From assembly GCA_015521265.1 (NCBI GenBank), contig WAON01000050.1, positions 1 through 24,734 on the forward strand: DNA of 24,734 nt, written 5' to 3'. The notes beneath the pieces are model-generated. The model saw only the letters and a list, made by a program, of their open reading frames with translations, had not been told where the DNA came from and searched no databases. A program made the position numbers and the translations under genes. Source of the stretch: Desulfurococcales archaeon (GTDB lineage: Archaea > Thermoproteota > Thermoprotei_A > Sulfolobales > Desulfurococcaceae). Below, one piece after another: positions 857 to 21,382 of the stretch. Position 1 is the first letter of the stretch, and the number at the start of each line of letters is the position of its first letter.

Positions 857-881
857 CCTGCCTCCTTTAAAAGCGGGTTCA

Positions 882-1562: not shown

Positions 1563-1571
1563 TTAGAAGGA

Positions 1572-3361: not shown

Positions 3362-3385
3362 TTGATCAATAGTTTCCTGGTTGTT

Positions 3386-3400
3386 ATATATAAGTTTTTG
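3386..3400 (-). promoter_or_regulatory. Archaeal BRE-TATA promoter for the cmr operon (likely leaderless transcript)
   Basis: The minus strand reads CAAAAAC-TTATATAT(AA) at 3400-3386, 25 nt before the GTG at 3361. Confidence 0.6.
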
Positions 3401-3480
3401 CTCTTAGGATTAATTTGTATTTTAGTAGTAAAGTTTAAAATATGAATATGAAGGGAATATGGTTTTCCTTGTTTTGTTGG

Positions 3481-5052: not shown

Positions 5053-5163
5053 GATGCATCTACCAAGGTTTTCTCCCTTATAGTTTTGCCCATTACCGTA
5101 TTTAATTATTCGGTATAACTTGTCCATACCTCCGGATTTGATTCCGGTGCTCAAACCTAAACA

Positions 5164-5171
5164 TTATATAA
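5164..5171. promoter_or_regulatory. Palindromic TATA-like box (TTATATAA) between the divergent genes
   Basis: TTATATAA is its own reverse complement and is preceded by AAAC on the + strand. Other TATA candidates exist (TTAAATA on the minus strand at ~5105-5099; TTAATTATA at 5221-5229), so the assignment is uncertain. Confidence 0.35.
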
Positions 5172-5203
5172 TCAATTGTTTAGACAACCATTAGCCTCCG
5201 AGT

Positions 5204-5262
5204 CAGGGGGATGTGGAGACTTAATTATACAATCCACTCCCCCTGCAACCAGGGGCTGTGGA
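5204..5262 (+). repeat. Three related GC-rich motifs (direct, inverted, direct) upstream of the giant gene
   Basis: CAGGGGGATGTGGA (5204-5217), TCCACTCCCCCTG (5233-5245; reverse complement CAGGGGGAGTGGA) and CAGGGGCTGTGGA (5250-5262). Confidence 0.85.
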
Positions 5263-5296
5263 AGAGTTGACTCAAATGATTCGGGATTGATAAGAC

Positions 5297-8200
5297 ATGT
5301 ATAAGCCGTTATTCATAATTGTACTCGTCATAATCTTAACTGGGTTAATCCTACCCATAACATATGGGTTAAACACTTCCAGCATTAATGATTCAAACAA
5401 ATACCTAGACTACCACTACTGGGCAACCATAACACACAAGCCCGAAAAACTCGAGAAGCTCATCAACGAAGTAATACCAAGCAATGGATCAATACATAAC
5501 GACATTGCAGAATACATGTTCTGGAACCACGTAATACCAGAAAAATGGGGTTATGGATACTATGAGAAAATACTATACGATAAACTAATACCCAGAAACA
5601 CCAGCAGCTCATACTATTACAAAACATACTTTAGAGACATAATAGGATACGGCTTCGAAGCATACTACATGGGATTCACTAATGTTACACCATTAGTAGA
5701 GCCGAGGGTCTACAGCTACTACCTTGACACACTGTTCGGATACCTAATACCGAAAAACTACAGCAGCGGGTTCTACTATGACACAGTATTCTACAAACTA
5801 TACTATAACTCGGTATGGGATTATCCAAGAATACTAGCAAACATAGCCTACAACACACCCTACGGATCATACATTGCACAAATACTAACAAGGATAGATA
5901 TGATGAAATGGCTTGACAGGTTCGGCAATCAGACGATTACTGGGAACAGCACTCCTTCACTCCTAGATACAAACCTAACCGGAACTATAAGGATAAAACT
6001 AGTAAGCATAGACGGCCCAGTAGAATACGCAGACGTATCCCTATACCGTAAAACACCATGCATCTATGGATCCTATTGCGGAGTAGATTATGTAGCTTCA
6101 AAATTCACAGATGCTAATGGAACAGTAGTATTCCACGTATACGCTGGAACCTACCAGATAGTGCTGGATGCAAAGGCTTATGGAGTAATAGATAATGTAA
6201 CGTTGAATCCGGGGGAGGAGAAGAATATAACGTTAATGCTTGGAAAGACGACTATAACCCTATACGATGCAGACAATTACCGGATGGCTTGGCTTTCAAT
6301 CTCAATATATCAGCAGAGGAATACTCCTGAGGGTCCTAAGCCGGGCTACTTTATCGCAAACACTATGCTCAGCGATAATGGAACGCTAACAGCCTATTTC
6401 ATTGAAGGAACATACATGATAAGACCACACGTATACAACTTGGAAAACCCCTATATATCCGGGATCGAGGCTGTAGCGGGGGTTACTAGGAGCTACGTAT
6501 TCCACCTAGACGTTGTAAAAGTTACGATAAAACCCCACACACCAGTACCGCTAGACTACTCGGGATTATACCCTTCAATATATATTTCAACACAGCCATA
6601 CTCGTGGGATTATTCGGTAGAGATATCTAATGGTGTTGGAACAATATGGGTTAAGCCCGGCGATTACTTCGTCTACATACCCTACATATACTTTAAAGGA
6701 CTAAGTACTAGGGCTAACATACTGTTCCCGATCCATGTAGCCGTCGGCTCAACTAACACTTTCTACTACGACCTAGGAGTACTATGGTGGAAGCCTAGTA
6801 ATGTAAACCATGAATCCGTTATGACGCTTACGGTCTACAGTGTGAAGACGATTAATGGAACAATTTATAGTACGCGTCTAGAAGGCGATGTAAATATTAA
6901 ATGGGGAGACTACCTCCTACTCCCACCTATGAAGACATACTTGTTCAAGCCAACAATGGGGCTTAATAGTTCAAAGTACAACTTCACAGTATACGTTACG
7001 CCGACGACAAACTACGAGTACACTGGGAACCTACCAGTAGGATATCTAAACGTAACACTAATCTATAACAATACAAGCCTCTACGACACCTATGAATTAA
7101 TAGATAAGCATAGTCAAAACAGCCTATACTATCAAACCCCACAACTAGTAGCCCTACTACCCGGAGACTACGTGTTGAATATGAAGCATATAGGGCTGGG
7201 AGGAGTAGTAGATAATTTAACGATAACACCCGGCGTAGTAGTAGGCCAAGTGTTTCGGACCGGTAAGCTAGTCGTAAATGTTTCATCATATAATGGCGAG
7301 AGGGCTTCGGAATGGATACCGGTAATTGTTGTGCAGGGTAATGATACGAGCGGGGAATTCATCACTAGTGGATGGACTACAAGAAGCTTAGCATTCTACC
7401 TACTACCAGGTAGCTACACGGTCATAGTACCCGGGATCAACACTACTTATGAATGGTACGTCAACATAGGGTATGGTGAGACTAGGCTAGACTTAAACGT
7501 TTCAGAAGCGAATGTAACGGAGACATACTTCAACCTAGGCAGGATAATGGTAAACATCGACCTCCCCGGCTCGCCTGAAAGCATCCGCAGCTACATTAGA
7601 ATAGTTATCGCTGAACAGAGAGTAGTTAATGGAACACCGGTTCCCGGAAGAATTATCCGGGAAGAGCCTTACTGGCACCTCCCATTGACGGCTAGCTTCG
7701 AAGTAACCCCTGGAATATACATGGTTTATCTTGAAGGTTCTGATGGGAAACCGATTAATGGAACGTTGACGTCGAATATCGCTGTTGATCCTAATGGATT
7801 AGCTATCGTTAACTATACGTTATCAATACTAAGAGTAAGGCTAGTAGTAAATAACACTCCGGTACCCGGCGTTGACATCGATATCTATAGGGGGACCGGT
7901 GATAATAGACAGTATTACTCGGAGATAACGACTGATGCAAGCGGTACAGCTGTTATAGCATTACCGCCTGGAAACTATAGTTTATGGACATTCGTACCGA
8001 TAGAGGATGAAGATCACCTATTAGGAACAGTCAATGTAACAGGGAATGGGCTAGTAATAAATAAGACACTCCAGTATCCCGGAGGATTCATAGTCCTACG
8101 CCTACTAGGACCCGGCGGTGAGCCAGCGGCTAATGTTAGGGTCCAGTTCAGATCCCTAGACCGCTACTCCTCAGAGATCATCTACACCGATATGGATGGG

Positions 8201-11200
8201 TACGCTTACGCCTACCTAGCAGCAGGGACTTATAGGATACTAGTCTACCCCTTCCTCTACAGCTATACGGGCGGTAGAATCGTTAGCGTTGCCCCCGGAG
8301 AATCCGTATACGTCGAGCTGCACCTCTCAAAGGTTACGCTACACGTTAATGTATCCGGTAGTCCATGGCTCGTGTTCTACATTAGGAATAATACTGATGG
8401 AAGACTATACAGCTTCGCGCCACACCTCTACAATGGCAAAACCTATGATTTATGGCTTCAACCCGGAAACTATACAATAGCCCTCCCAGGATCCAGGACT
8501 ACTATACAGTCATGGAACAAGTACGGCTACGGTACCGAGTACAGCTTCATACTAGGCCCCAACGACCATGTCGAGCTAAGCTTCAATGTTTCTGAGATAG
8601 TGGTTATGCTAAACCCGTGTGGAGACTATGATTTAGCCGGTTCACTATACGCGTACCTACTAGGATATAATAGCAACCTATCAGACCCATACACTGAAGT
8701 TATAGGGAATCGATACTTTACAACATACTATCCACAAGCATACGCAGTATTCTACGTTACACCCGGCGAATACGCCGTAATAATACCTGGAGACCCATGG
8801 AACTCTACATGGTTCTACTCAAAGTTTGGAGAATTCATATACGGATCCCTAATAGGCTACGGATTAATGGATCACGCACTAGTAGGCCATGGCGGTGAAA
8901 TACTGGTATACCAGCACAATGTTTCAGTACTAGCCCTACACTTGAATAATACATATCCAGAGGGTGCAAGAGCTGAATACTCTATATATACACTCTCAGG
9001 ATCACTCGTAAGATCGGGATACGTAAGCCCAGGAGACTATGCCTTCATACCATTAACACCCGGACAATACGTCTTAAACAACTACGGCTACACAAACATA
9101 ACACTTACAGAATGCAACTCAACACTAGTAGAGTTGAAAATTACCGGTTTAAGCCTAAAAGTAGTAGGCCCAGATAATGAACCAGTTAAGAATGCATATT
9201 ACATTATACATGATATGAACGACAACTACGTAGCATCAGGCTATACAGACTCATTTGGAGAAGCATTCATCTCCCTATCGCTGGGCAGTTACAAGCTAGT
9301 GTTTCCAGGAGTAAACCACTCATACAGTCCCTACAATGCAAAATACAACCTGAACAAACAGTTCGGATACGGACTACAACTAAACATAACGATAACAGGG
9401 TACAACAAGTTGAAAGTAATATTCTCGAGGATTGATGTAAACATTACATCCCAACTAGGAAAAGCGAGCAATGTTGAAGTAATGCTCTATACACCAGATA
9501 TGTCTAAGATCATAAAGGGAGCATACACTGATTCCAATGGAATCGCAAGGTTCTACGTATCAAGTGGAAGCTATAGAGTAGTTATAAGGGGATTATACTA
9601 TGGCTACAGCGACGCATACTATGTAGGCTGGTCGTACTATCCACTATTCGGTTATGGCGCAATAGTCGGTGATGTCAACATTGGAGTAAATACTTCAGCT
9701 GTACTACACTATAATTTATCAGTAGTAAAGCTAAGAGTCCTAGACACCAATGGAAACTATGCTGGCGGACTGCGCGTAGTGCTTAGAGCGAATGACACGT
9801 ATACAACATCTCTAACATACACTTATACATCAAGCTATGAACCAGTATACTTCTACGTTACTAATGGAACATACATAATAGACCTAATATTCCTAAAGAA
9901 AACGGTAACCGTTGGGATCGGGGAACTCGCCGATGTAGTAATAAACGTTGCAATGCTACACGTACATATTAATATACCGGAGAATAATTACGATATTATC
10001 CCCTACGGTATATCGATAACAGTATACTATAATACAACCGGGACATCCGGCTACTCAGCAGTATTATACTACACTACAAATAGTACTGGAGACGCAATAA
10101 TCTATACACCACTAAACATTAATGTAACAGTAGTGATTAAGAAAGGCTACTCAATAACTGAAACCATCTACATGGACTCAGCAAAGTATAGGGAGTATAA
10201 TCTAAGCATATTTTATATTAAAGTACTATCACCAACGGGGCCAGTAAAATACCAGGAGTTCTACCTATACACACTCGACCACTCTTCATATATAAGGCTG
10301 ACAACGGATTATCGTGGAGAAGACTATGCTATCATTGTGCCGGGAACGTATATTCTACAGAAGAGCGATTGGAGCTCGATTATTGGTAGGCTAGACGAGC
10401 TCGTAATCATACCGAATTACACGGTGAAAACATACCAGCTAAACCTCTCGATATTGAACATACACTCGCTAGTCCCTTCAAAATACTATCTTGGAAACCC
10501 GTTCGAGTTCACTATCTCATCTATCGATGGGTCATATGTTTCTTGGTCATACTACTTGTATCATAATGATACTAGGAGCTTCTACGTAATCCCTGGAACA
10601 TACGTTATACACTCGGATATTAGTAATGGCTGGGATGTAAACAAGACGGTAGTTCTCCCCGAAAACGCTACAAGGGACGTTACGTTCAAGCTTGGCGGAT
10701 TAGTGTTATGGATATATAAACCCGATGGATCACTATTGAATCCACCCATCGATCATCCATACGGGTATTCTATGATTGTGTCACTATATACTGAGGTAGG
10801 CGGCTCCCTGGAAAGCTTTGTATCGACTAGCCAGACCGACTCGGAGGGTAAAGCTGTATTCGGACCTCTAGTTAACGGAACATACGCTTTCAACCTAGAT
10901 CCGTACGACGACTATGGTGGACCCTACAAACTATACAATATTACGGCCGAACCACTAGTGTTCAGGGAATACAACTTTACACTTGGCGGGCTAGTAGTAC
11001 ATATGCAGTATAATAATGGAACACCTGCACAGGGCATTGCTATAACGATTTATAGTAGGAGCTATACGCTGTACACGTTGTACACTGATGCAAACGGAAC
11101 CATTACAGCATACCTATTACCGGGAACATACACCCTGTACATTTACGGTCTAGGATACGTCTACAACATACACGTCTACCCTGGAAGATACACGAATAAG

Positions 11201-14200
11201 ACATACACGACGAATCCAAGCGATCTAGAAGTATCGAGTATAACATGGACACCGTCAACGCCAAGCGATGGAGACACCGTTCTCGTAACGGCAACTATAA
11301 AGAATAACGGGCCCGGACACGTATTCAACGATTTCAACGTAGTATTCTACCAGAATGGGACTAAGGTTTATGAGGCAGTCGTACACGGATTGCTCAGCGG
11401 CTACAATACTACCGTAACTGCGCCAATAACAGCTATTGCGGGTACTGATGAGGTTAGGGTCGTGGTAGATCCGGATCAATCAATAGTTGATCCTAATAGG
11501 GGCAATAACGAGTTAACAGCATGGATAAACGTGTTACGCCCAGACCTAGAAGTTACTAGTGTATGGATTAATGGAACACTAATAGATGGAGCAGCTGCAA
11601 CATTATACTTCAACGTAACAAATAATGGGCCCGGAGCATTACACCATGAGGCCAGCGTCAAGGTAATCTATGGATCCATGGTAACCTATAGGAGGATATA
11701 CTCGCTCGAAGTAGGCGAAGTAGTAACATTATCAGTAAACATAATCGTATTAGGAGGGTTATCAAATGCTATAATAACCGTAGACCCAGACAACGAGGTT
11801 AGTGAATCCAATGAAGACAACAACGTCTACAACTACACTTTGTCGGTGCCGGAGCCAGACATAGTAGTAGTTTCAGCGGCATTAAACGCTTCAGAGTTGG
11901 TTGATGGAGGAATAGGGGAGATAACAGCGGTAATCAATAACACTGGAGGCAGGACGCTCAGATCTATACACGTCGTACTATATGCTGATAATAAATACTT
12001 GGGAACAACAATTATCAACGGCCTAGACACCGGTGAAACAGTAACAGTAACCTTCTACGTATTACTACGCGGTGGAACAACTAATTATACAGTAATAGTA
12101 GACCCCTACAACAAGGTACCGGATGCTAATAGGTCTAATAACAGAGCAACAGTACCTGTATACATTCCATACCCAGACCTAGCATTCACAAGCCTATACT
12201 TTACACCGACAAACCCTGGAAGCGGCGAAATAGTACATGTAGTATTCAATATAACAAATATAGGTGTAGGAGGTACAAAGACAAACTTCGCGGTAGAATT
12301 AAAAGTAAACGGAGAAGTAAAATCTTCAAGCTATATATCAAGAGACCTATACCCAGGAGACACGATAACAGTAACACTATCCACTATTGTACATGCCGGA
12401 AACAACACGATAGAGATAATAATCGATCCACACGGATACGTATCAGAATCGAACAAGGCAAACAACAAATACGTGTTCATAATAACCGTACCATACAGCG
12501 ACCTAGAAATAAAAACAATGAATATATCACAGGGACCATACCATAACATGGGAGAAGTAAACGTAACAGTTACGATAGTTAACAACGGCCCAGGATCACT
12601 CAACGAGACATTCTACGTAGCCTTCTTCGGAAACGATGAATTCCTAGAACAGGTCGAGGTTAACGGGCTTGGAGTAGGTGAGGAGAAGAATATAACGGTA
12701 ACTATACCCGTGTACACCGGTTACTACACAATCAAGGCAATAGTGGATGATCACTACCAGAGAATAATCGGAGGATCATATGTATGGGGTCATAAACACG
12801 AAGTAGCAGATCCGTATAGGAATAACAACATAGCATCCAAGACAATATACGTTGCAGGACCAGACCTAACATTAGTTAGTGCAGAAATAACCCCGTCAAC
12901 GCCGGATCCATGGACTGGATTCAATATAACACTGAGGGTAAGGAATAATGGAGACTATGCTTCAACGAGGCCAGTAGCGGTAATAGTCGAAGTAGGATCT
13001 GTGAGGCTTATTGATGAAGTACCAGAGCTAGACGTAGGCGGTGAAGCAAATGTTACTATCCCGGTACTCGACGGCCTGGATCCCGGGACATATACTGTGA
13101 GAATAGCTGTAAACCCATTCCACGAAGTAATAGAGCACGACTATACAGACAACAACTACACGATAACCCTCATCATACCGGCGCCAGACCTAGCAATAAC
13201 ACACATCTACGCACCAGTTATAAATGGCTCAGTAGAAGCGGGAGATCAAATAATCATTAATGTAACGGTGAAGAATTATGGTGCAAGCTTCAAACGCGAC
13301 ATCTACATCGAAGCCCTTGTAAATGATTTACTCATTGGAAACAACTATATTATAGGGGGAATAGACAGCGGTGAGGAAAAGAACATAACACTATCATTAA
13401 CAGCTATACCTCCAAGCCTCGAGAATACCCGTATAATAATTGATCCACGCAATGATATCTACGAATCCGATGAGACAAATAATGAAGCAATCTATCACGG
13501 ACCCATAGTTAGATCGTTGATCCTTGGACAAACAGCCTACGATGTAATATACATGCACCATGAAGAATTCAACCTCAAAATACAGAATAACGGCGGAGTA
13601 CCGTTAAAGGTTACCAGCATAGTATTTACAACAACCAGCCTAGTACTTAATACAAGCCTACCATTAACGATTAAACCCGGTGAAATAGCATCCATACCAA
13701 TATTAGTTGATACATTAACCGAAGGAATAGGCCCGAAGAACTACGGCGTAATAATCTACACCAATACCTCGATAACTATCAATTCAACAATCACAGTCCT
13801 AATCCATAATATCAGCAAAGTAATAAGCGTCAATGTAAATAAGAAAGAAGCAGTTTATAGTATGGGCCAGACAGATAAGATATCATTACTTGTAGGCTCG
13901 CAGCTCCCATCAATAATAAACAAGGCACACGTAGAATTATCAGGGAATGCTACAGGCATTATAGAAGGTTCGACAAGCTTCAACATAACGATTCGTCACA
14001 TAGTAAGAATCATGGTTAATGCAACCATCCCGCCTGGAAGATACATCTTATTAATCAATGTATCATTCCAGGGAGTGGACTATTATGTTGTTAGAAAAGT
14101 AGATATTACGGTTGTTAGAGACCCAATAGTGAAAATAATATCTCCGAGGAGTATTAATAGCGTACTAGCATCGAACACCCTCGTTGTAACCTTTAAGAGC

Positions 14201-17200
14201 AATGTACCAATAAACGGGACGATATACTTCAGGGATGTAAGTAGTTCCTCATGGACTATTATAAGATACGGCGAATTATCGAGGGATACGTTCTATAGGA
14301 TACCTATCGGCGGATTATCATCAGGGCATAGATACATGTTCTACATTGAGGCAGTATCGGAGTACGGCTCATACACCTCGCCGATGTACTATGTAAACGT
14401 AACGGTTTCAGTGGTATTCGTGGATCACGAGCTTAACGTAACGATTAACCGCGACTACAACCAGCTGGTCTACGTTAAAGTAAGGAATCTCGACTACATG
14501 TATCCACACGCGATCTATGCTAAGATCATAGAGTCTAGCCCGGAGCTAATAGTAGACTTTGTAGGGCCTGGATCAATTGATACCGTTGAAAAAGTAGGTT
14601 CTGGTAAGTTCGTTACGTTGATGCTAGTAATACATGCTGCAGATACGACTAGGAATAACTATACTATAACGGCAATGCTGGTAAACCTAGATAGTAACGC
14701 TACAGACTACATGGTTATACACGTATATGTTAAAGAGCCGGTCTTCAACGTTACACTAGATTATCTCGGAATGGATAATCATACACTAGTACAGTCGTGG
14801 AGGCTTGTGAACCATGGAGACACGATAACCGATCTAAGCGTGCACCTCGAAGGACCGGCTTCAACATTCGCCTACGTATACCCGTCGATGAACCATGTTA
14901 GGATAATGCATGAGCAGGCAATATACTTCTACGTAATACCAGTACTCGGAATATACCCAACGGATCCAGCGCTACATAATGGAACACTCGTCGTTGAAAC
15001 AGGAGACCCGGCATCGTTCAGATACGAGATGCCGCCCATAAACCTCCCGAAGGGTTCGAAGATATATAGTGTACCAGTCGAACACGTTAGAGCTACCGGC
15101 CAGTCGAAAGACTGGTACTGTACTAATAGGCCCCACGTATCGACGAAGATCAAGTTATCAGTTGATCCACCAGCATTCAACAACACGCTACAAATAAACG
15201 CAACCCTATGGATAGACTTCATACCACGCTACGATGTCTGGCACGTACTACCACACGATGGAACAATATATGTAAACGGCGTACCAGTCTATAACTGGCA
15301 CAACACTATACCCGAGGGAACGGTGAAGATTCCATTACCGCCTAAGGTTATTGAGAATGCGGTTGCTGCCGGGGGAGACATGTATACTTTCACGGTAACA
15401 GTAGATACTAAACATATGAATGGCGGACACTACGTTGTAGCGACGAATTACAAGTTACAAATCGATACGGGTTCAACATCGATATTCGTAGCAGCCTCGA
15501 GCTTCCAGGATGCTAAGAATAGTGTAGTACACTTATCTAAGCCTAATAATGACAAGGTTAAACCTAAGGAATGTGATAAGAAGGTGAAAATGCCTGGATG
15601 GCTACAAGCTCTTATAACTTATTTGAAGGGCTCTCATAAGTGGAGCTTTGAGAACCTGCCGGCGCCGAAGATACTCTTAGACATGGTTAAGTCTAGCTCG
15701 CCGATAGAGATCAAGGCTGAGTTCTCAATAGAGGTAGATCCAACGCCAACCTCAGTAAAGGTAAGCGGAGGTGGAAGCGTTGAGCTCGGAGTCGGAATTT
15801 ACGGGGCAGAAGGAAAGGTAACAGCCAGTGGTGGATGGAGCGTTAAGAACTGTAAATGGGGCTTCGACGGTATAACAATTGAGCTATCCGCTGGAGGAGG
15901 ATACAGGTGGAGTTATAAATTCCCGTTGGAATGGGCTAGGTGGATACCCAGAGCTGGTGATGACGCTAAGCCATTAAGCGTTGAGGGGAAGATCTACCTA
16001 GAACTATCATCAACAGTAATACAGCTAGACGAGCACTTGAAAGTTAAAGCAATACCAACATTATTAATTGGAATATCGGCTACGGGTAAAGCAGAGCTAA
16101 GCGTTGGATCAAGGTTAAAGTTATCAGCTGAAGCAACAGTCGGATTCCACGCAGGCTACAAGGACTACGACTACTATGCACAATTTAAAGCAGGAATAAC
16201 GGGTAATGTCGAGGTAGACCTCTCACTATTCTCAGCATCAGCCTCCGGAACCTACGGGTTAAAATACGTATATGAGCATGGATCATGGGTTAAGAAGAGC
16301 TACAACGATCCAGGTGTAACTCTGTTATCTTATCAGTTCTACAATATTGATCTAGGCTATCCAACCCTAGCATCACCATCCACGATGAGCAGCTTGGGAG
16401 AATCAACAGCATACGTAGAAGGCCTGGGATTATACACCGTATGGGTTTCAACCGATAACAGTAATTCAAAGATAATGATCTCAAGGCTAGTCGGAGACAC
16501 ATGGACTACGCCAACCCAGCTCAGCTTCCCCAATGAGAATTATGCACTAGTAAAAGCAGTACCAGTAGGTTCGAAGCTGGGAGTACTAGCCCTAGCAATG
16601 CCCAGTATAAGCGAGAACACGACTCCGTCAGAGCTTGTACGCCTGCTCAACAAGGGTACACTATACTATGCAGAATACAATGGATCAGCATGGACACCTC
16701 CAGAAATAATAGCGGTAAACGTCTCGCTATCACTGGACGTCGAGTCCTATAATGGATTAACAATAGCGGCTTGGTCGACACTAATTAATAACTCCTATGT
16801 AGTCGAGGCAGTGCTAAACGATGGATCGGGCTGGAGCCCGGTAACGATCATACCTGGATCAAGGGTTCCAAGCACGTATACAATATACGATGTAGCAGCC
16901 GGATTCATAGATGGAAGACCCACAGTATACTGGGCCACAGACCTATACTGGGACGGCGAAGAACTGATCAGAGGAATAAAGTACTCCGAATACAACGGTG
17001 AATCATGGACTACACCTACTACACTACCAACTACGAGCAACGTAGCACTACTAGATGCCGACACCTATGGAAGAATCGCTTGGAGCACTGATGAAGGAAA
17101 CATCTACCTAGCAGGATGGAACGGAACCGCATGGGTCATTGTAAGGATAGGAACAGGCTTCGATCCATCAATACTATCCAGTAAGAACAAGCTACTAGTA

Positions 17201-20200
17201 GCAGCTAATATCAGGGATGACCGTGATGATATAGAAATATACATTGTTGATACAACAACGTGGAAGACGGTAACGGCGAGGATAACGGATGACGACCTAC
17301 TAGATAAACAGTACACGTTCGCATCTACACCGAGCGGGTACCTAGCACTAATATGGAGGCGTAGCCTAGACCCAGCAGTAAAAACACCGCCAGAAAACAA
17401 GACATGGGCCAGTGGAATAGTCTACGAACCACTCTACAATATCTCAATAACAGGGCTAGACACTACTAAGCCAGTAGTAGAAGGCAACCCATTAACAGTA
17501 ACGACAAACATAACAAACAACTCTACAAAACCAGTAACCGGAAAACTAAACATATACCTCAACGAATCACTAGTTAAAACCGTAAACATCATGATACCGC
17601 CGAACACAACCTATACAGTAGACGAGAACATAACGATCAACGAGTCAGGGAAGTGGAGCATAAAAGCAGAACTAACAGACCTAAACGCTACATCGATCGG
17701 CTTACTCGAGAAAACAATAACCCTTGAAACACTAAGACTCATCCAGAACACATCGCTAACACCGGGATCATACATCGACGCAGTAACAACGATACACCTA
17801 TACGTAAATGGCTACAAGAAGACAAATGTAACAATAACGGCTAATAACCTGACTGTCGGCTCGGCTAGTGGAGTCATTGGAGATGTAGCAGTACAGTTAA
17901 ACCTATCAAAACTACCCGACGGCCCAACTACACTAGTAATCAATGTGGTAACAATAGATGGAGCAGCCAATGATTCACTATCGATAAATGTATACCTAGA
18001 CAAGACTCCTCCAACAATCATAGTACATGAACCAGAGAACAACACGATTGTATCCGGTAATGTAACGGTTATAGCAGAGATCTACGATACATATTATGAT
18101 CTACCATCGACGCCCGAAGTATACATTAATGGTTCAAGTATTATGTGGACGCTGGTAGAAGGAGACAATTACACGTTAATAATAGATACTACAACGTATC
18201 CGGATGGTAAGCCGTTAAACATAACAATAATAGCAGTAGACGTATCTGGGAAGACAATGGTGAAAACAATATATGTCACTCCAGATAATACGCCGCCAAT
18301 TACAACCGATAACTCTACGAAGACATGGTATAACAACGATGTAGCAATAATGCTTACAGCAACCGATAACGTTGCAGGAGTAAACGCTACTTATTACAGC
18401 GTGGACAACGGATCATGGGTCATGGGCGACATTGTCTATATACCAGCACCAAGCGATCACAGCAATGATGGAACACACACGATAATGTATTACAGCATAG
18501 ACAACGTAGGCAACATAGAGCCGATAAATACACTTATCATAGGAATCGACACTCTATCACCAATAATAACATGTAATATAGCAAACAACACCTACTTCTC
18601 TGGAGGAACAGTTAGCTTCTTCTTCCACATAGTAGACAATACGTCAGGCTTGTCGAAAGCCTATGGTTACTTCGATGGATCACTGCAGCGTATAAAGAAC
18701 ATGAACGGCGAACACGAATATACGATGGACTTCCAGGGATTAAACCTAGGATACCTAAGAGAGGGTATGCACTACTTCAGGATAGTATCAGTAGACATTG
18801 CAGGTAACACTAGGGAGTACATACTAGTATTCTATGTAGACAAGACTCCGCCTACAGCAGAGATCACGAGCCCCGAGGATGGAGCCCTAGTATCCGGAAC
18901 GATCAATATAACCTTCAACTACACTGACAACCTATCGCCAGTCTACGCATACCTACACATAAACGGTGAAACAATAAACGTTACAGGAACATACAGCTAC
19001 ACACTGGACACGACACAGTACAATGATGGACAATTAACAATAACACTTGAAGCAATAGACTATTCCGGCAGGAGATCCACGGATACAGTAACGATAATAG
19101 TAGATAACACCCCTCCAGCAGTAACGATAAATTCACCAGCTAATAACTCAGTAGTAGGCGGAATAGTAACAATATCATATAGCATTGATGAAGAACACCT
19201 AGACCAGGTATGGCTAAGCATAGGAAACATAACGGTAAACATAACTGGATCAACAACTTACAGCTTAAACATTACGATGCTACCAGATGGAGCATACACG
19301 CTGACAATAACTGCAAACGATACACTAGGCCATACATCATCAGCCTCAATAATAATCATAATCGATAATACACCGCCCACAGCAGTAATAACCTATCCAG
19401 TAAGCCGCGGATACTACTCCGGAGTAATCAATGTAACATTCAACTACTCAGATACAAACCTTGACAAAGCGTATCTAGGCATAGACGGCTCCTACATAGA
19501 TGTAACTGGATCCTATAGCTACACGCTAGATACTACACAGTACAACGACGGCGAGCACAATATAACGCTACTAGTAAAGGATAAAGCCGGAAACACCATG
19601 GAGTACACGGTAACAATATACATCGACAACACCCCGCCAACTGCACAGATACTATCACCAAGCAACTCAACCGTAATACACGACGTGGTAAACATAACGG
19701 TAATGTATAGTGACATTTTCCTAAGGGAAGCAATACTACTGATCGATAATGAGACAGTAAACATTACCGGAACCTACAACTATACACTAGATACAACAAC
19801 CATGACGGACGGATTACACAATATAACACTAATAGTACAGGATAAAGCAGGGCATGAATCAACGACTAGTATAGTAGTAATCGTAGACAATACACCGCCA
19901 ACAGGTGAGATAACAAGCCCGGCCAACGATACGTATCACCGCGGGACAATAACGATAACAGTATCCTACAATGATCTAACGCTAGAACAAGCACTATTAA
20001 TCATAGACAATGAAACCATAAACATAACCGGCTTGACAAGCTACACATTAGACACTACAAGCCTAAACGATGGAGAACACATTATTAAACTAGTAGTAAC
20101 CGATAAAGCCGGACACGCTGCAAGCGATGAGATAACAATTATCGTGGATAACACTCCACCAACAGCATCGATCAACTCTCCAATGAACGGAGCAGTCGTA

Positions 20201-21382
20201 TCCGGAACGGTAACTATCGATGTATCATATGGCGATGCAAACCTAGAAGAAGCCAGGTTATACCTTGATAACACGCTAGTAGCGGAATTAACGGGTTCAA
20301 CATACCAGCTAGACACGACGCAATACAGTGATGGAACCCACACGTTGAAACTAGTAGTATCCGATAAAGCAGGGAATACTATGGAGTCAACAATCACTAT
20401 AACAATTGATAATACACCACCAGTAATCTCAATCGAAGCACCTGGAAACAATACCTATGTTAAAGGAACGGTAACAATTAATGTATCATACACCGATCTA
20501 ACACTGGATAAAGCAGTACTAGTAATAAACGGGGTAGAACACGATATAACCGGTGAAACAAGCTACGTACTAGACACTACAACACTACCAGACGGCGAAG
20601 TAACAATTACGCTGAGAGTAACGGATAAAGCAGGGCATGAATCAAGCCAGAGCATAGTCTTGATCGTCGACAATACTCCGCCGACAGTAGAAATTACTTC
20701 ACCGATTAACAATGCAGTAGTATCAGGGACGATAAACATAGCCTTCTCAGTTGAAGATGCAAATATTGAGAAAGCAGTATTAACAATAGATGGAGCGGAA
20801 CAAGTAGTAACCGGTAAGAACAGCTACACATTGGACACTACAAAACTAGCAGACGGAGAACACACGATAACCCTAACAGCAATAGACAAAGCAGGAAACA
20901 AGGCCGAAGCAACAATAACGATAATCGTCGACAACACCCCACCGACAATAACAATAATATCACCACTACCAGACGAAGCCTACTACCTTGGACAAACACT
21001 AACCATACAGTGGAGTATCGACGATGCAAACCCTGTAGAAACAATACTATACATCGGAGAAGAAGAACTAAACGTAACAGGTAAGACAAGCATCACATAT
21101 AAACTAGAAAACATACCGACAGGAACACTAACAATAAAGATCAAAGCAACAGATGCAGGAGGAAACACGGCAACCAAGACGGTTACAATACGCGTACTAA
21201 CACAAACAACAACCACACAACCAACAACAACTACAACACCAGGAACAACAACCCCCTCAACAACCCCGCCCACTACAACCAGTCCACCACCAACAACTAC
21301 AACAACAGCTGTAATAGTTGGAGTAATAATAGTACTACTGTTAATCGCTGGAATATACCTGTTGAGAAGTAAGAAAACATAG
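5297..21382 (+). CDS. Giant (5361 aa) secreted, membrane-anchored modular surface glycoprotein / putative adhesin
   Basis: Uninterrupted 16-kb ORF. Order of parts: signal peptide MYKPLFIIVLVIILTGLILPITYG, ~20 prealbumin-like beta-sandwich repeats, 7 CARDB-like repeats, a central unique module, a putative beta-propeller, ~12 Ig-like D(N/K)TPP repeats, a Thr/Pro linker, a TM helix and an RSKKT tail. Very many N-x-S/T sequons. Confidence 0.92.
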   Translation: MYKPLFIIVLVIILTGLILPITYGLNTSSINDSNKYLDYHYWATITHKPEKLEKLINEVIPSNGSIHNDIAEYMFWNHVIPEKWGYGYYEKILYDKLIPRNTSSSYYYKTYFRDIIGYGFEAYYMGFTNVTPLVEPRVYSYYLDTLFGYLIPKNYSSGFYYDTVFYKLYYNSVWDYPRILANIAYNTPYGSYIAQILTRIDMMKWLDRFGNQTITGNSTPSLLDTNLTGTIRIKLVSIDGPVEYADVSLYRKTPCIYGSYCGVDYVASKFTDANGTVVFHVYAGTYQIVLDAKAYGVIDNVTLNPGEEKNITLMLGKTTITLYDADNYRMAWLSISIYQQRNTPEGPKPGYFIANTMLSDNGTLTAYFIEGTYMIRPHVYNLENPYISGIEAVAGVTRSYVFHLDVVKVTIKPHTPVPLDYSGLYPSIYISTQPYSWDYSVEISNGVGTIWVKPGDYFVYIPYIYFKGLSTRANILFPIHVAVGSTNTFYYDLGVLWWKPSNVNHESVMTLTVYSVKTINGTIYSTRLEGDVNIKWGDYLLLPPMKTYLFKPTMGLNSSKYNFTVYVTPTTNYEYTGNLPVGYLNVTLIYNNTSLYDTYELIDKHSQNSLYYQTPQLVALLPGDYVLNMKHIGLGGVVDNLTITPGVVVGQVFRTGKLVVNVSSYNGERASEWIPVIVVQGNDTSGEFITSGWTTRSLAFYLLPGSYTVIVPGINTTYEWYVNIGYGETRLDLNVSEANVTETYFNLGRIMVNIDLPGSPESIRSYIRIVIAEQRVVNGTPVPGRIIREEPYWHLPLTASFEVTPGIYMVYLEGSDGKPINGTLTSNIAVDPNGLAIVNYTLSILRVRLVVNNTPVPGVDIDIYRGTGDNRQYYSEITTDASGTAVIALPPGNYSLWTFVPIEDEDHLLGTVNVTGNGLVINKTLQYPGGFIVLRLLGPGGEPAANVRVQFRSLDRYSSEIIYTDMDGYAYAYLAAGTYRILVYPFLYSYTGGRIVSVAPGESVYVELHLSKVTLHVNVSGSPWLVFYIRNNTDGRLYSFAPHLYNGKTYDLWLQPGNYTIALPGSRTTIQSWNKYGYGTEYSFILGPNDHVELSFNVSEIVVMLNPCGDYDLAGSLYAYLLGYNSNLSDPYTEVIGNRYFTTYYPQAYAVFYVTPGEYAVIIPGDPWNSTWFYSKFGEFIYGSLIGYGLMDHALVGHGGEILVYQHNVSVLALHLNNTYPEGARAEYSIYTLSGSLVRSGYVSPGDYAFIPLTPGQYVLNNYGYTNITLTECNSTLVELKITGLSLKVVGPDNEPVKNAYYIIHDMNDNYVASGYTDSFGEAFISLSLGSYKLVFPGVNHSYSPYNAKYNLNKQFGYGLQLNITITGYNKLKVIFSRIDVNITSQLGKASNVEVMLYTPDMSKIIKGAYTDSNGIARFYVSSGSYRVVIRGLYYGYSDAYYVGWSYYPLFGYGAIVGDVNIGVNTSAVLHYNLSVVKLRVLDTNGNYAGGLRVVLRANDTYTTSLTYTYTSSYEPVYFYVTNGTYIIDLIFLKKTVTVGIGELADVVINVAMLHVHINIPENNYDIIPYGISITVYYNTTGTSGYSAVLYYTTNSTGDAIIYTPLNINVTVVIKKGYSITETIYMDSAKYREYNLSIFYIKVLSPTGPVKYQEFYLYTLDHSSYIRLTTDYRGEDYAIIVPGTYILQKSDWSSIIGRLDELVIIPNYTVKTYQLNLSILNIHSLVPSKYYLGNPFEFTISSIDGSYVSWSYYLYHNDTRSFYVIPGTYVIHSDISNGWDVNKTVVLPENATRDVTFKLGGLVLWIYKPDGSLLNPPIDHPYGYSMIVSLYTEVGGSLESFVSTSQTDSEGKAVFGPLVNGTYAFNLDPYDDYGGPYKLYNITAEPLVFREYNFTLGGLVVHMQYNNGTPAQGIAITIYSRSYTLYTLYTDANGTITAYLLPGTYTLYIYGLGYVYNIHVYPGRYTNKTYTTNPSDLEVSSITWTPSTPSDGDTVLVTATIKNNGPGHVFNDFNVVFYQNGTKVYEAVVHGLLSGYNTTVTAPITAIAGTDEVRVVVDPDQSIVDPNRGNNELTAWINVLRPDLEVTSVWINGTLIDGAAATLYFNVTNNGPGALHHEASVKVIYGSMVTYRRIYSLEVGEVVTLSVNIIVLGGLSNAIITVDPDNEVSESNEDNNVYNYTLSVPEPDIVVVSAALNASELVDGGIGEITAVINNTGGRTLRSIHVVLYADNKYLGTTIINGLDTGETVTVTFYVLLRGGTTNYTVIVDPYNKVPDANRSNNRATVPVYIPYPDLAFTSLYFTPTNPGSGEIVHVVFNITNIGVGGTKTNFAVELKVNGEVKSSSYISRDLYPGDTITVTLSTIVHAGNNTIEIIIDPHGYVSESNKANNKYVFIITVPYSDLEIKTMNISQGPYHNMGEVNVTVTIVNNGPGSLNETFYVAFFGNDEFLEQVEVNGLGVGEEKNITVTIPVYTGYYTIKAIVDDHYQRIIGGSYVWGHKHEVADPYRNNNIASKTIYVAGPDLTLVSAEITPSTPDPWTGFNITLRVRNNGDYASTRPVAVIVEVGSVRLIDEVPELDVGGEANVTIPVLDGLDPGTYTVRIAVNPFHEVIEHDYTDNNYTITLIIPAPDLAITHIYAPVINGSVEAGDQIIINVTVKNYGASFKRDIYIEALVNDLLIGNNYIIGGIDSGEEKNITLSLTAIPPSLENTRIIIDPRNDIYESDETNNEAIYHGPIVRSLILGQTAYDVIYMHHEEFNLKIQNNGGVPLKVTSIVFTTTSLVLNTSLPLTIKPGEIASIPILVDTLTEGIGPKNYGVIIYTNTSITINSTITVLIHNISKVISVNVNKKEAVYSMGQTDKISLLVGSQLPSIINKAHVELSGNATGIIEGSTSFNITIRHIVRIMVNATIPPGRYILLINVSFQGVDYYVVRKVDITVVRDPIVKIISPRSINSVLASNTLVVTFKSNVPINGTIYFRDVSSSSWTIIRYGELSRDTFYRIPIGGLSSGHRYMFYIEAVSEYGSYTSPMYYVNVTVSVVFVDHELNVTINRDYNQLVYVKVRNLDYMYPHAIYAKIIESSPELIVDFVGPGSIDTVEKVGSGKFVTLMLVIHAADTTRNNYTITAMLVNLDSNATDYMVIHVYVKEPVFNVTLDYLGMDNHTLVQSWRLVNHGDTITDLSVHLEGPASTFAYVYPSMNHVRIMHEQAIYFYVIPVLGIYPTDPALHNGTLVVETGDPASFRYEMPPINLPKGSKIYSVPVEHVRATGQSKDWYCTNRPHVSTKIKLSVDPPAFNNTLQINATLWIDFIPRYDVWHVLPHDGTIYVNGVPVYNWHNTIPEGTVKIPLPPKVIENAVAAGGDMYTFTVTVDTKHMNGGHYVVATNYKLQIDTGSTSIFVAASSFQDAKNSVVHLSKPNNDKVKPKECDKKVKMPGWLQALITYLKGSHKWSFENLPAPKILLDMVKSSSPIEIKAEFSIEVDPTPTSVKVSGGGSVELGVGIYGAEGKVTASGGWSVKNCKWGFDGITIELSAGGGYRWSYKFPLEWARWIPRAGDDAKPLSVEGKIYLELSSTVIQLDEHLKVKAIPTLLIGISATGKAELSVGSRLKLSAEATVGFHAGYKDYDYYAQFKAGITGNVEVDLSLFSASASGTYGLKYVYEHGSWVKKSYNDPGVTLLSYQFYNIDLGYPTLASPSTMSSLGESTAYVEGLGLYTVWVSTDNSNSKIMISRLVGDTWTTPTQLSFPNENYALVKAVPVGSKLGVLALAMPSISENTTPSELVRLLNKGTLYYAEYNGSAWTPPEIIAVNVSLSLDVESYNGLTIAAWSTLINNSYVVEAVLNDGSGWSPVTIIPGSRVPSTYTIYDVAAGFIDGRPTVYWATDLYWDGEELIRGIKYSEYNGESWTTPTTLPTTSNVALLDADTYGRIAWSTDEGNIYLAGWNGTAWVIVRIGTGFDPSILSSKNKLLVAANIRDDRDDIEIYIVDTTTWKTVTARITDDDLLDKQYTFASTPSGYLALIWRRSLDPAVKTPPENKTWASGIVYEPLYNISITGLDTTKPVVEGNPLTVTTNITNNSTKPVTGKLNIYLNESLVKTVNIMIPPNTTYTVDENITINESGKWSIKAELTDLNATSIGLLEKTITLETLRLIQNTSLTPGSYIDAVTTIHLYVNGYKKTNVTITANNLTVGSASGVIGDVAVQLNLSKLPDGPTTLVINVVTIDGAANDSLSINVYLDKTPPTIIVHEPENNTIVSGNVTVIAEIYDTYYDLPSTPEVYINGSSIMWTLVEGDNYTLIIDTTTYPDGKPLNITIIAVDVSGKTMVKTIYVTPDNTPPITTDNSTKTWYNNDVAIMLTATDNVAGVNATYYSVDNGSWVMGDIVYIPAPSDHSNDGTHTIMYYSIDNVGNIEPINTLIIGIDTLSPIITCNIANNTYFSGGTVSFFFHIVDNTSGLSKAYGYFDGSLQRIKNMNGEHEYTMDFQGLNLGYLREGMHYFRIVSVDIAGNTREYILVFYVDKTPPTAEITSPEDGALVSGTINITFNYTDNLSPVYAYLHINGETINVTGTYSYTLDTTQYNDGQLTITLEAIDYSGRRSTDTVTIIVDNTPPAVTINSPANNSVVGGIVTISYSIDEEHLDQVWLSIGNITVNITGSTTYSLNITMLPDGAYTLTITANDTLGHTSSASIIIIIDNTPPTAVITYPVSRGYYSGVINVTFNYSDTNLDKAYLGIDGSYIDVTGSYSYTLDTTQYNDGEHNITLLVKDKAGNTMEYTVTIYIDNTPPTAQILSPSNSTVIHDVVNITVMYSDIFLREAILLIDNETVNITGTYNYTLDTTTMTDGLHNITLIVQDKAGHESTTSIVVIVDNTPPTGEITSPANDTYHRGTITITVSYNDLTLEQALLIIDNETINITGLTSYTLDTTSLNDGEHIIKLVVTDKAGHAASDEITIIVDNTPPTASINSPMNGAVVSGTVTIDVSYGDANLEEARLYLDNTLVAELTGSTYQLDTTQYSDGTHTLKLVVSDKAGNTMESTITITIDNTPPVISIEAPGNNTYVKGTVTINVSYTDLTLDKAVLVINGVEHDITGETSYVLDTTTLPDGEVTITLRVTDKAGHESSQSIVLIVDNTPPTVEITSPINNAVVSGTINIAFSVEDANIEKAVLTIDGAEQVVTGKNSYTLDTTKLADGEHTITLTAIDKAGNKAEATITIIVDNTPPTITIISPLPDEAYYLGQTLTIQWSIDDANPVETILYIGEEELNVTGKTSITYKLENIPTGTLTIKIKATDAGGNTATKTVTIRVLTQTTTTQPTTTTTPGTTTPSTTPPTTTSPPPTTTTTAVIVGVIIVLLLIAGIYLLRSKKT
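5471..5797 (+). repeat. Tyr-rich ~18-aa repeats at the N-terminus of the giant protein
   Basis: VIPEKWGYGYYEKILYDK / LIPRNTSSSYYYKTYFRD / LIPKNYSSGFYYDTVFYK. The starts at 5531, 5585 and 5639 are 54 nt apart, and a further unit starts at 5744. Confidence 0.6.
5980..11215 (+). repeat. ~20 tandem prealbumin-like (carboxypeptidase-regulatory-like/CnaB-like) beta-sandwich repeats
   Basis: Recurrent motif TDxxG-x(6-8)-(L/V)xxGxY, e.g. TDANGTVVFHVYAGTY, TDASGTAVIALPPGNY, TDMDGYAYAYLAAGTY, TDSNGIARFYVSSGSY, TDANGTITAYLLPGTY. Boundaries are approximate. Confidence 0.7.
11220..13500 (+). repeat. Seven CARDB-like domains
   Basis: Seven units each begin (P/S)D(L/I) (PSDLEV, RPDLEV, EPDIVV, YPDLAF, YSDLEI, GPDLTL, APDLAI), contain VxNxG, and mostly end DPxNx(I/V)xExxxxNN. 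Confidence 0.85.
16430..17400 (+). repeat. About six blade-like repeats (x-N/D-G-x-x-W-x-x-P): putative beta-propeller
   Basis: VGDTWTTP, YNGSAWTPP, NDGSGWSP, YNGESWTTP, WNGTAWVI, VDTTTWKT. Confidence 0.5.
17999..21195 (+). repeat. ~12 Ig-like (Big-type) repeats delimited by D(N/K)TPP
   Basis: D(N/K)TPP codons start at 17999, 18284, 18839, 19103, 19364, 19625, 19886, 20147, 20408, 20669 and 20930, with a DTLSP variant near 18548. Internal motif YTLDTTxxxDGxHxITLxxxDKAG. Confidence 0.9.
21200..21307 (+). repeat. Thr/Pro low-complexity linker before the C-terminal TM anchor
   Basis: TQTTTTQPTTTTTPGTTTPSTTPPTTTSPPPTTTTT, encoded largely by ACA/CCA codons. Confidence 0.9.

Follow-up and report, generated by a model that had tools for sequence, protein, structure and literature searches.

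Giant repeat adhesins have an Ig-like stalk bearing non-repeat binding modules, as in Marinomonas MpIBP and other RTX adhesins. A barrel-plus-Ig-array layout is found in the inverse autotransporters intimin and invasin. Among archaea, the hypervariable Ig-domain proteins of Thermococcales, as outlined in PMC8416519, are large Ig-repeat surface proteins with a proposed role in recognition or conflict. Here, we consider a giant surface protein of a hot-spring archaeon, P0001 (5361 aa; 5297..21382, + strand), encoded in a 24,734-nt window of contig WAON01000050.1, from Desulfurococcales archaeon assembly GCA_015521265.1. Note that the window is the whole stretch of DNA analysed, read on the forward strand. 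P0001 differs from the giant repeat adhesins because it is anchored by a C-terminal transmembrane (TM) helix, in the cytoplasmic membrane, and its hub of non-repeat domains is mid-chain, with a 3200-aa arm beyond. Judging from its sequence, P0001 would also, unlike those adhesins, carry archaeal N-glycosylation. The likeness to the Thermococcales proteins is one of description, and a downstream gene module of the kind described in PMC8416519 is not seen here.

From its N-terminus, P0001 comprises a hydrophobic signal, ~20 prealbumin-like repeats, 7 CARDB domains, Ig-like domains, the hub, ~14 Ig repeats, a Thr/Pro linker and the TM anchor. The hub region starts with a jelly-roll 'core' domain (15038..15538, +; aa ~3248-3414), marked by the motifs DWYCTNRP and HMNGGHY. 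This is followed by a Lys-rich linker (15539..15703, +), with the conserved motif KPKECDKKVKMP that contains C3426, and an orphan beta domain (15704..16297, +; aa 3470-3667), for which searches of family databases gave no match. A connector (16298..16411, +; aa 3668-3705), modelled with low confidence, has an invariant D3671-P3672 pair and an L..Y-P motif. It leads to a putative six-bladed propeller (16412..17386, +; aa ~3706-4030), proposed solely from a sequence pattern, a W-x-x-P/V motif in each blade. The proximal stalk (17387..21166, +) consists of ~14 Ig-like repeats (Big_7/Big_3_3; period 87-95 aa), and is the most acidic and most sequon-dense portion of P0001. A Thr/Pro-rich linker, the TM helix and a short basic tail complete the protein (21167..21382, +). 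The stalk repeats separate the hub from the anchor and, at an assumed 3.5-4 nm per repeat, would span ~50-60 nm, which would place the hub ~55-65 nm above the membrane.

The original prediction was that P0001 contains a long island free of N-glycosylation sequons, and both its coordinates and its counts were right. There are 157 N-x-S/T sequons in P0001, accounting for 157 of its 378 Asn residues, and ~62 are expected from shuffling (a 2.5-fold enrichment outside the island). Conversely, between NAT at aa 3301 (nt 15197) and NTT at aa 3774 (nt 16616), where shuffling predicts 2.8 sequons, none of 18 Asn is in a sequon. This gap of 473 aa is the longest in P0001 and the sole outlier; the runner-up is 197 aa. 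When 157 sites were placed randomly, 0 of 5000 trials reached 473 aa (maximum 454). The conserved desert (15200..16381, +; aa 3302-3695) covers the last two thirds of the jelly roll, the Lys-rich linker, and the beta domain of ~200 aa. Within P0001, the gap extends to aa 3773 (nt 16615), and sequons reappear within the putative propeller. Since sequons are so enriched elsewhere, and the genome encodes AglB (STT3), their absence is meaningful. The flanking sequons are probably glycosylated in reality.

The island was also correctly described as rich in Lys, Gly, Ser and Ala (K 9.1 versus 3.6% in the whole protein, G 10.3 versus 7.7%, S 11.6 versus 7.3% and A 6.6 versus 4.8%). Asn is lowered to 2.8-3.8%, compared to ~7%. 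The longest sequon gap is at the same place in the homologues P0002, P0003, P0004 and P0012. Across six homologues (28-64% identity), the region equivalent to aa 3302-3695 of P0001 has 1 sequon among 79 Asn, located at a beta-turn in P0004. Composition predicts 10.1 sequons, and the protein-wide density ~69. By comparison, 20 of 53 and 59 of 118 Asn are in sequons in the two flanks (38-50%). Hence, homologues do not have normal sequon density here, and sequon avoidance in the desert is active, beyond Asn depletion. Polar strand faces of the beta domain have 17 Ser and 8 Thr, yet 1 Asn. Charge is also distinctive. The isoelectric points of the jelly roll, linker and barrel are 8.0, 9.7 and 6.4, compared to 4.1-5.5 for the arms, making the hub the sole non-acidic part of P0001. 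Lys is 2.5-5-fold enriched in the hub region, distant giants included.

The jelly roll supplies the first 110 aa of the desert, and its sequons (3295 and 3301) are confined to its first third. An AF2 model (pLDDT 87) has an eight-stranded jelly-roll fold. The VIA neighbours are the PNGase F N-domain (1pgs; Z 9.4, rmsd 3.0 over 117 residues), the BcsB CBD (6yg8; Z 8.9) and a GH86 module (Z 8.9). Foldseek also matched BcsB (E 6e-4). The likeness to PNGase F and BcsB lies in the eight-stranded jelly roll, and the Z scores barely exceed the generic jelly-roll background of 7-8. Neither protein has sequence similarity to the core domain, and both differ from its family, which has its own invariant set of C3275, N3277, H3320 and Y3379, with H3378 nearly so. 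We dropped PNGase activity of the jelly roll as a cause of the desert, since the fold similarity is scarcely above that of generic jelly rolls. A sequence search found 237 representative proteins at E <= 0.001, nearly all aligned solely over the jelly-roll stretch. Modules that follow it in other proteins vary; among 123 of these, 12 have DUF6531 and 6 have RHS repeats. The jelly roll is a widespread and large family, lacking a model in the Pfam copy searched. This family, with its invariant Cys/Asn/His/Tyr set and nearly invariant His, deserves separate study.

The linker and beta domain contain the alternating strands, and the two Cys residues (KECD, C3426; NCKW, C3519), that had been pointed out from the sequence. 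After the C3426 motif, two short hydrophobic helices (3434-3443 and 3458-3464) flank a short strand. The most conserved motif of the beta domain, WSVKNCKWGFDG, contains C3519 and is at the beta3-beta4 turn. Hence, the two best-kept motifs of linker and beta domain are Cys-bearing, Lys/aromatic-rich segments. The beta5-beta6 hairpin, a former candidate for the most conserved element, was dropped because the Cys motifs outrank it. The AF2 model of the beta domain has 9-10, and at most 11, amphipathic antiparallel strands, of 13-22 residues each, connected by turns of 2-5 residues. Nine homologues share this strict dyad amphipathicity. The turns (DEHLK, GSR, TPT and NC) are polar, and not fusion-loop-like. 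The model is a barrel-like meander, with long dyad-amphipathic hairpins. With a conserved desert, and a model unlike an ordinary small beta-sandwich, neither of the outcomes that would have refuted the original prediction was seen.

The barrel may still be a modelling artefact. The region would then be an ordinary elongated beta-sandwich, or a fibrous spacer against the propeller, and the desert would result from tight packing and low Asn. Mean pLDDT is 67, from a shallow nine-sequence alignment, with termini below 50, and structure prediction may lean towards barrels when a sequence is Gly-rich and has dyad repeats. The depletion of Asn is consistent with this explanation. Conversely, strand blocks have pLDDT values of 75-86, the five models are similar (62-67), and sequon avoidance exceeds Asn depletion (1 observed against 10.1). 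Furthermore, the sandwich domains in the rest of P0001 do not typically have strands as long as 16-22 residues joined by 2-residue turns. We consider an artefact rather unlikely.

The best 50 VIA matches of the beta-domain model are all outer-membrane barrels (Z 8-13), with no soluble barrel or beta-pore-forming toxin among them. CymA (4d5b) is foremost (Z 13.0, rmsd 4.3 over 191 residues), autotransporter barrels (AIDA-I 4mee, BrkA 3qq2, Hbp 3aeh and NalP 1uyo) score Z 10-11, and TamA, BamA and CdiB also appear. The named atlas matches are outer-membrane barrels without exception. An ESM-atlas feature search gave low recognition (1330) and carries no information. In its predicted shape, the domain shares with these barrels a meander of long, amphipathic, antiparallel strands, each paired with its next neighbour, and an N-terminal helical segment before the wall (VIA Z 10-13 over 180-200 residues). 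However, there is no sequence relationship, and rmsd values are 4-7 Å. Foldseek, against the PDB, found nothing at E <= 0.001 with the barrel model. The weak rows, with a best E of 0.015 and TM <= 0.3, were pore-forming toxins, outer-membrane proteins and paramyxovirus attachment proteins. Briefly, PlyB, NetF, gamma-haemolysin, perforin-2 and gasdermin had E 0.015-0.3 and TM 0.07-0.13. RBG or AsmA-like beta-groove proteins, and fusexins or class II fusogens, were absent from the listed Foldseek, VIA and atlas matches. Similarly, the island (aa 3200-4100 or 3405-3715) had no match in Pfam, NCBIfam or PDB sequences, and a PDB profile search was also negative. Pfam at E <= 10 produced only noise, with no OMP_b-brl, Autotransporter or Omp85 profile match. 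Of the membrane, pore or fusogen idea in the original prediction, an unglycosylatable region with amphipathic hairpins is upheld; significant similarity to beta-pore-formers, fusexins or RBG grooves is not.

Could the domain nonetheless be a membrane-inserting, outer-membrane-protein- or pore-like barrel? Its hydrophobic face would point outwards, around a lumen lined by Ser, Lys, Glu and Gly, and its target would be the membrane of another cell or an unrecognised outer sheath. Besides the structural matches, such a barrel would account for the strict dyad pattern, the aromatic clusters near both rims, and a polar face that is Gly/Ser-rich, like a pore lining, and nearly free of Asn. Fast divergence, with retention of the pattern, is also expected of membrane barrels. 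On the other hand, the Foldseek and family searches returned nothing significant, and the domain lies inside an archaeal protein that is Sec-exported and helix-anchored. Hence, it lacks the C-terminal beta-signal of outer-membrane barrels. Its turns are short at both ends, unlike outer-membrane proteins as we know them, and its hydrophobic face may point inward. To our knowledge, described Desulfurococcales, except Ignicoccus, have no outer membrane. No Omp85 (PF01103) turned up in the 86%-complete genome, in which positive controls were detected. S-layered Desulfurococcaceae also lack an outer membrane (PMC5744192). Overall, we regard membrane insertion as unlikely. A self-inserting TM barrel, of the outer-membrane-protein type, mid-fibre and ~60 nm from its own membrane, in an archaeon with no recognised outer membrane or Omp85, is improbable. 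If true, no archaeal transmembrane beta-barrel would, as far as we know, have preceded it, and it would represent a novel type of device for contact between cells.

The hydrophobic face itself provides further clues. It has invariant mid-strand glycines (3493, 3506, 3597, 3636 and 3651), is 28% Ala plus Gly, and shows complementary large/small swaps in one subgroup. Its stripes span up to 11 alternate positions (~20 residues), which we estimate to be longer than a bilayer. Together with the two preceding helices, these properties favour a protein-packed, rather than lipid-exposed, face, and fit protein packing better than a membrane barrel. Aromatics of the same face are concentrated close to the two ends of the strands, with a spacing of ~12-14 residues that resembles membrane girdles. 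Conservation of the hydrophobic and polar faces, used as a proxy for orientation, is 0.36 and 0.32 respectively, which is not a significant difference (p = 0.11). Because the barrel model is of only moderate confidence, the direction of the hydrophobic face, in or out, is inferred rather than seen. In the monomer model, all hairpins are already used in the domain's own barrel. A homotrimer model (aa 3425-3694 x 3) scored 0.00, lacked controls, and carries no weight either way on oligomerisation.

Our best explanation, offered tentatively, is that the island is a bare, glycan-free contact hub of an acidic, probably heavily N-glycosylated, membrane-anchored archaeal fibre. What the analysis establishes is the desert and its conservation, where the domains begin and end, the amphipathic nature of the strands, a barrel-like model, the contrast in charge, and a restricted distribution. 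The hub would pair the jelly roll, which resembles carbohydrate-binding modules, with a compact, lineage-specific domain of beta-barrel-like shape. The Lys-rich linker would be tied to the barrel by a probable C3426-C3519 disulfide. The barrel would be soluble, with its hydrophobic strand faces buried against its own two helices or neighbouring domains. Its polar surface, rich in Ser, Thr, Lys and Glu, would touch a partner so closely that glycans are excluded. This partner could be the neighbouring propeller and jelly roll, the S-layer canopy of the same cell, or the acidic glycoprotein surface of another cell. Counting against a soluble hub, the best-matching shapes are exclusively wide outer-membrane barrels, the rim aromatics have girdle-like spacing, and the difference in face conservation falls short of significance.

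In a special case of the contact hub, the barrel, jelly roll and propeller would form a collar that threads through the S-layer canopy of the same cell, or docks into it. The canopy would leave no room for glycans, and the distal arm of 3200 aa would extend beyond it. Desulfurococcaceae have open S-layers, of p4 meshwork, and a wide quasi-periplasm; Staphylothermus has a 70-nm stalk and a 70-nm quasi-periplasm (PMC5744192), comparable with the ~50-65 nm predicted here. The hub is also mid-chain, rather than at the tip, and, within an acidic protein, stands out as neutral or basic. However, the beta domain is in only 2 of the 26 genomes searched from the same family, though S-layers are present in most described members of the order (PMC5744192). 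In addition, the genus is uncultured and no S-layer partner was identified. We consider the collar doubtful.

Returning to the contact hub in general, the beta domain is restricted to giants of two Desulfurococcales genera. A profile search for stand-alone or mid-size carriers of the barrel, covering proteins of 119-552 aa and 553-2000 aa, came up empty. An exhaustive single-sequence search found it in giants only, plus one 307-aa fragment from a frameshifted short contig, and a scan of JGI metagenome contigs revealed no relatives. Within the clade, the region is collinear, with identity (28-64%) slightly below that of the flanks. At depth, it diverges far faster than the flanks. In P0013, flanks align at 29-31% identity and ~180-300 aa past the core do not. 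The barrel profile has no detectable similarity to the post-core regions of P0016 and P0013, and a marginal match to that of P0015 (probability 67%, E 5e-5). This region in the distant giants is nevertheless Lys-rich, Asn-poor, sequon-poor and amphipathic, despite sequence divergence. Because these properties persist, the data point to one domain that has diverged, rather than been replaced.

The original prediction offered an exchangeable cassette as an alternative. Here, the slot between jelly roll and propeller would hold a rapidly replaced, or diversifying, specificity or effector module. The loss of alignment in distant giants, and the varied modules after the jelly roll elsewhere, lend this idea partial support at depth. 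Within the clade, it is rejected, since the region is collinear. The properties that persist in the divergent giants also speak against it, and domain searches recognised no toxin or immunity genes. We judge a cassette quite improbable. Nothing was found to support the further suggestion of a contact-dependent delivery or antagonism device, and P0001 has no Pfam match, anywhere along its length, to DUF6531, RHS/YD repeats or a toxin domain. An RHS-like mini-cocoon was similarly dropped, as RHS and DUF6531 matches are lacking and none of the top structural matches is a teneurin or Tc shell.

Archaeal surface proteins are usually taken as passive glycan-coated scaffolds. In P0001, sequon mapping alone locates a bare patch of ~400 aa, conserved to 28% identity, and with a composition that is recognisable where sequence similarity is lost. 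This suggests that 'glycan holes' could be a general, cheap guide to functional sites in archaeal surface giants. The beta domain is probably an undescribed domain family, with a predicted shape that most resembles outer-membrane barrels; as far as we know, this class of fold has yet to be established in Archaea. A soluble domain would be a new hyperthermostable barrel module that probably serves in adhesion or docking, whereas a membrane-active one would alter how interaction between archaeal cells is viewed.

The only giant ORF of the window (nt 5297-21382, forward strand) encodes P0001, a protein of 5361 amino acids whose numbering we use throughout. The gene's neighbours are a pyruvate:ferredoxin oxidoreductase gene on one side and, divergently upstream on the minus strand (window positions 2-3361), a type III-B CRISPR operon (cmr, RAMP). 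Another cmr operon (L009:1-1394) adjoins the gene for P0013, a distant giant that is about 29% identical along most of its sequence. Hence, the giant gene and cmr neighbourhood is conserved at these loci. P0001 has a hydrophobic signal at the N-terminus; at its C-terminus, a linker rich in Thr and Pro leads to a TM helix and then a short basic tail. Pfam identified prealbumin/CarboxypepD_reg-like repeats in the first 1900 residues, seven CARDB domains (residues about 1976-2700), and Big_7/Big_3_3 Ig repeats (residues about 4500 to 5300). Residues 3200-4100 had no Pfam match. The proximal Ig stalk (window 17387-21166), with a very regular period of 87-88 residues marked by D-N/K-T-P-P, is the most acidic part of P0001 (pI 4.1, net charge -69) and the densest in sequons, with up to 7 per 100 residues. 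In precomputed domain lists of the collection, accession PF27332.1 appears for P0001 and its homologue P0002 only.

P0001 contains 157 N-x-S/T sequons among 378 Asn residues, where shuffling predicts about 62. Since the genome encodes an STT3/AglB homologue, scoring above the Pfam cut-off, these sequons are plausibly used for glycosylation. The original prediction described an island between sequons at nt 15197 and nt 16616, with 18 Asn residues and no sequon; these limits are exact. The gap (473 residues, 3301 to 3774) is the longest in P0001, the second longest being 197 residues. A gap of this length never arose in 5000 random placements. The longest gap is at the same place in each collinear giant: P0002, P0003, P0004, and P0012 (62%, 39%, 34%, and about 35% identical to P0001 over the queried region). 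We aligned six homologues and placed every sequon on P0001 numbering. Between residues 3302 and 3695 there is one sequon for 79 Asn residues, where composition alone predicts 10.1. The exception, in P0004, is in a two-residue beta-turn at 3623. In the flanks, 20 of 53 (left) and 59 of 118 (right) Asn residues are in sequons. We conclude that the desert is real, conserved, and due to both Asn depletion and active avoidance.

The desert starts inside a jelly-roll domain (DWYCTNRP ... HMNGGHY; window 15038-15538, forward strand, residues about 3248-3414). Its conserved sequons (3295, 3301) are confined to the first third, and the remainder is part of the desert. The family is widespread. When 1.84 billion representatives were searched exhaustively with residues 3150-4050, 237 proteins (cluster representatives, mostly of 1000-5000 residues) matched at E <= 0.001, nearly all aligning to residues about 3150-3412 only. 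The Pfam copy searched has no model for it. The AF2 model (99-sequence alignment, pLDDT 87) is a jelly roll. Its nearest structure, with VIA Z 9.4 and an rmsd of 3.0 over 117 residues, is the N-terminal domain of PNGase F. A GH86 accessory module and the carbohydrate-binding domain of BcsB come next; for BcsB, Z is 8.9 and the Foldseek E-value 6e-4. Such scores are only a little above generic jelly-roll background. C3275, N3277, H3320, and Y3379 are invariant, and H3378 nearly so, which suggests a site for metal binding or catalysis. Modules that follow the domain in 123 other proteins include CARDB (40), Big_7 (23), DUF6531 (12, directly after the jelly roll), RHS repeats (6), and dockerin (5). 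The domain looks like a general surface-protein module.

Directly after the jelly roll is a Lys-rich linker (pI 9.7, conserved motif KPKECDKKVKMP). It is followed by a short strand flanked by two helices, both short and very hydrophobic, and then by beta structure of about 200 residues, the barrel domain (residues 3470-3667). Region 3413-3700 was found only in P0001-P0004 and P0012, at loci L001-L004, and in one 307-residue fragment. Of 201 genomes from the order, 3 were found to carry it, and these belong to two genera of one family; the relatives' contigs are titled as Desulfurococcales and Desulfurococcaceae metagenome-assembled genomes. Profile searches found no stand-alone or mid-size version. 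The fragment, P0014 (L010:112-2797), is the sole short match; it sits on a 2.8-kb metagenome contig where adjacent ORFs overlap, and is most likely a frameshifted piece of another giant gene rather than a stand-alone protein. No relative was detected in Pfam, NCBIfam, or PDB sequences. By sequence, the barrel domain is an orphan limited to a few uncultured Desulfurococcaceae.

Its AF2 model (nine-sequence alignment) has a mean pLDDT of 67; strand blocks score 75-86, and the termini fall below 50. The model predicts nine to ten antiparallel strands, 13-22 residues long, with connecting turns of 2-5 residues. Foldseek gave no significant match. In the all-against-representatives VIA comparison, the top 50 are outer-membrane barrels only: CymA is best (Z 13.0, rmsd 4.3 over 191 residues), and autotransporter translocators (Z 10-11), TamA, BamA, CdiB, KdgM, and NanC also match. 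An atlas search agrees, finding TonB-dependent receptors and OMP barrels (TM 0.4-0.6). These OMP-like matches argue, at moderate confidence, for a tall, fairly wide, barrel-like meander with long strands. The model is not an ordinary beta-sandwich, the fold that the original prediction had named as counting against it.

All strands show dyad amphipathicity in all nine homologues. Pooled hydrophobic faces are V15 A14 L11 G10 I9 Y8 F5 W3, and polar faces S17 K14 E13 G12 T8 with one Asn only; conservation of the two faces does not differ significantly. The hydrophobic face could be exposed to lipid, on the exterior of a membrane barrel. The exclusively OMP-like neighbours of the model favour this, as do aromatics gathered at both rims and a polar face that, rich in Gly/Ser and otherwise Asn-free, resembles a pore lining. 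Alternatively, the face is buried in protein, in a soluble domain. Pointing this way are invariant mid-strand glycines on the hydrophobic face, its 28% content of Ala or Gly, complementary large/small substitutions in one subgroup, hydrophobic helices before the strands, and hydrophobic stripes of up to about 20 residues, estimated to exceed the bilayer span. Furthermore, Omp85 was not found in the 86%-complete genome. Counting only readings with a real barrel, the soluble domain is probably correct; a membrane barrel is unlikely but, if true, would be much more novel than a contact hub. Hence, of the membrane-active beta module first envisaged, amphipathic strands and an OMP-like model shape stand, while membrane insertion is disfavoured.

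The best-conserved segments of the domain are two Cys-bearing motifs, at 3514-3525 (WSVKNCKWGFDG) and 3422-3433. Because both Cys are kept wherever region 3413-3700 is present, the linker is probably tied to the beta3-beta4 turn by a disulfide. Just past the last barrel strand is an Asp-Pro pair (D3671-P3672, window 16307-16312), invariant in all nine homologues. Since Asp-Pro bonds are heat- and acid-labile, this could be a site of programmed or spontaneous cleavage in a hyperthermophile. Beyond it, residues 3706-4030 (window 16412-17386, forward strand) lack a Pfam match and contain six W-x-x-P/V motifs, spaced 42-63 residues apart, consistent with a six-bladed propeller.

An exchangeable cassette was also considered originally. 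Within the clade the island aligns collinearly, and its divergence is only a little greater than that of the flanks, so swapping is rejected there. The jelly roll is still 37-41% identical in giants that are more distantly related. The P0013 alignment picks up again around the last barrel strands and continues through the propeller; the stretch just before them cannot be aligned in P0013. Profile comparison does not detect it in P0016 and gives a marginal match for P0015 (hhalign probability 67%, E 5e-5). The corresponding stretches remain Lys-rich (2.5-5-fold), Asn-poor, and sequon-poor, and in those of P0015 and P0016 there is also an enrichment of long amphipathic windows. Such retention is better explained by a single constrained module that diverges fast than by its replacement.

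Jelly roll, linker, and barrel domain are together the sole non-acidic part of P0001 (whole-protein pI 4.9). The best-supported interpretation is a glycan-free contact hub formed by jelly roll, barrel domain, and putative propeller. It would occupy the middle of an acidic fibre with a glycan coat, separated from the membrane anchor by about 14 Ig repeats. Assuming 3.5-4 nm per Ig repeat, its height would be about 50-65 nm. Desulfurococcaceae have a wide quasi-periplasm and a tetrabrachion stalk of comparable length, 70 nm (PMC5744192). In one attractive variant, the S-layer canopy would be at the height of the hub and would be where it docks. Nothing found supports a toxin-delivery device: a Pfam search of P0001 found no toxin, RHS, or DUF6531 domain, and the delivery or antagonism role suggested originally is not borne out. 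P0001 would belong with giant repeat surface proteins carrying a non-repeat binding hub. The barrel domain would be the new part, with a predicted shape nearest to outer-membrane barrels, a fold class that, to our knowledge, is not established in Archaea.
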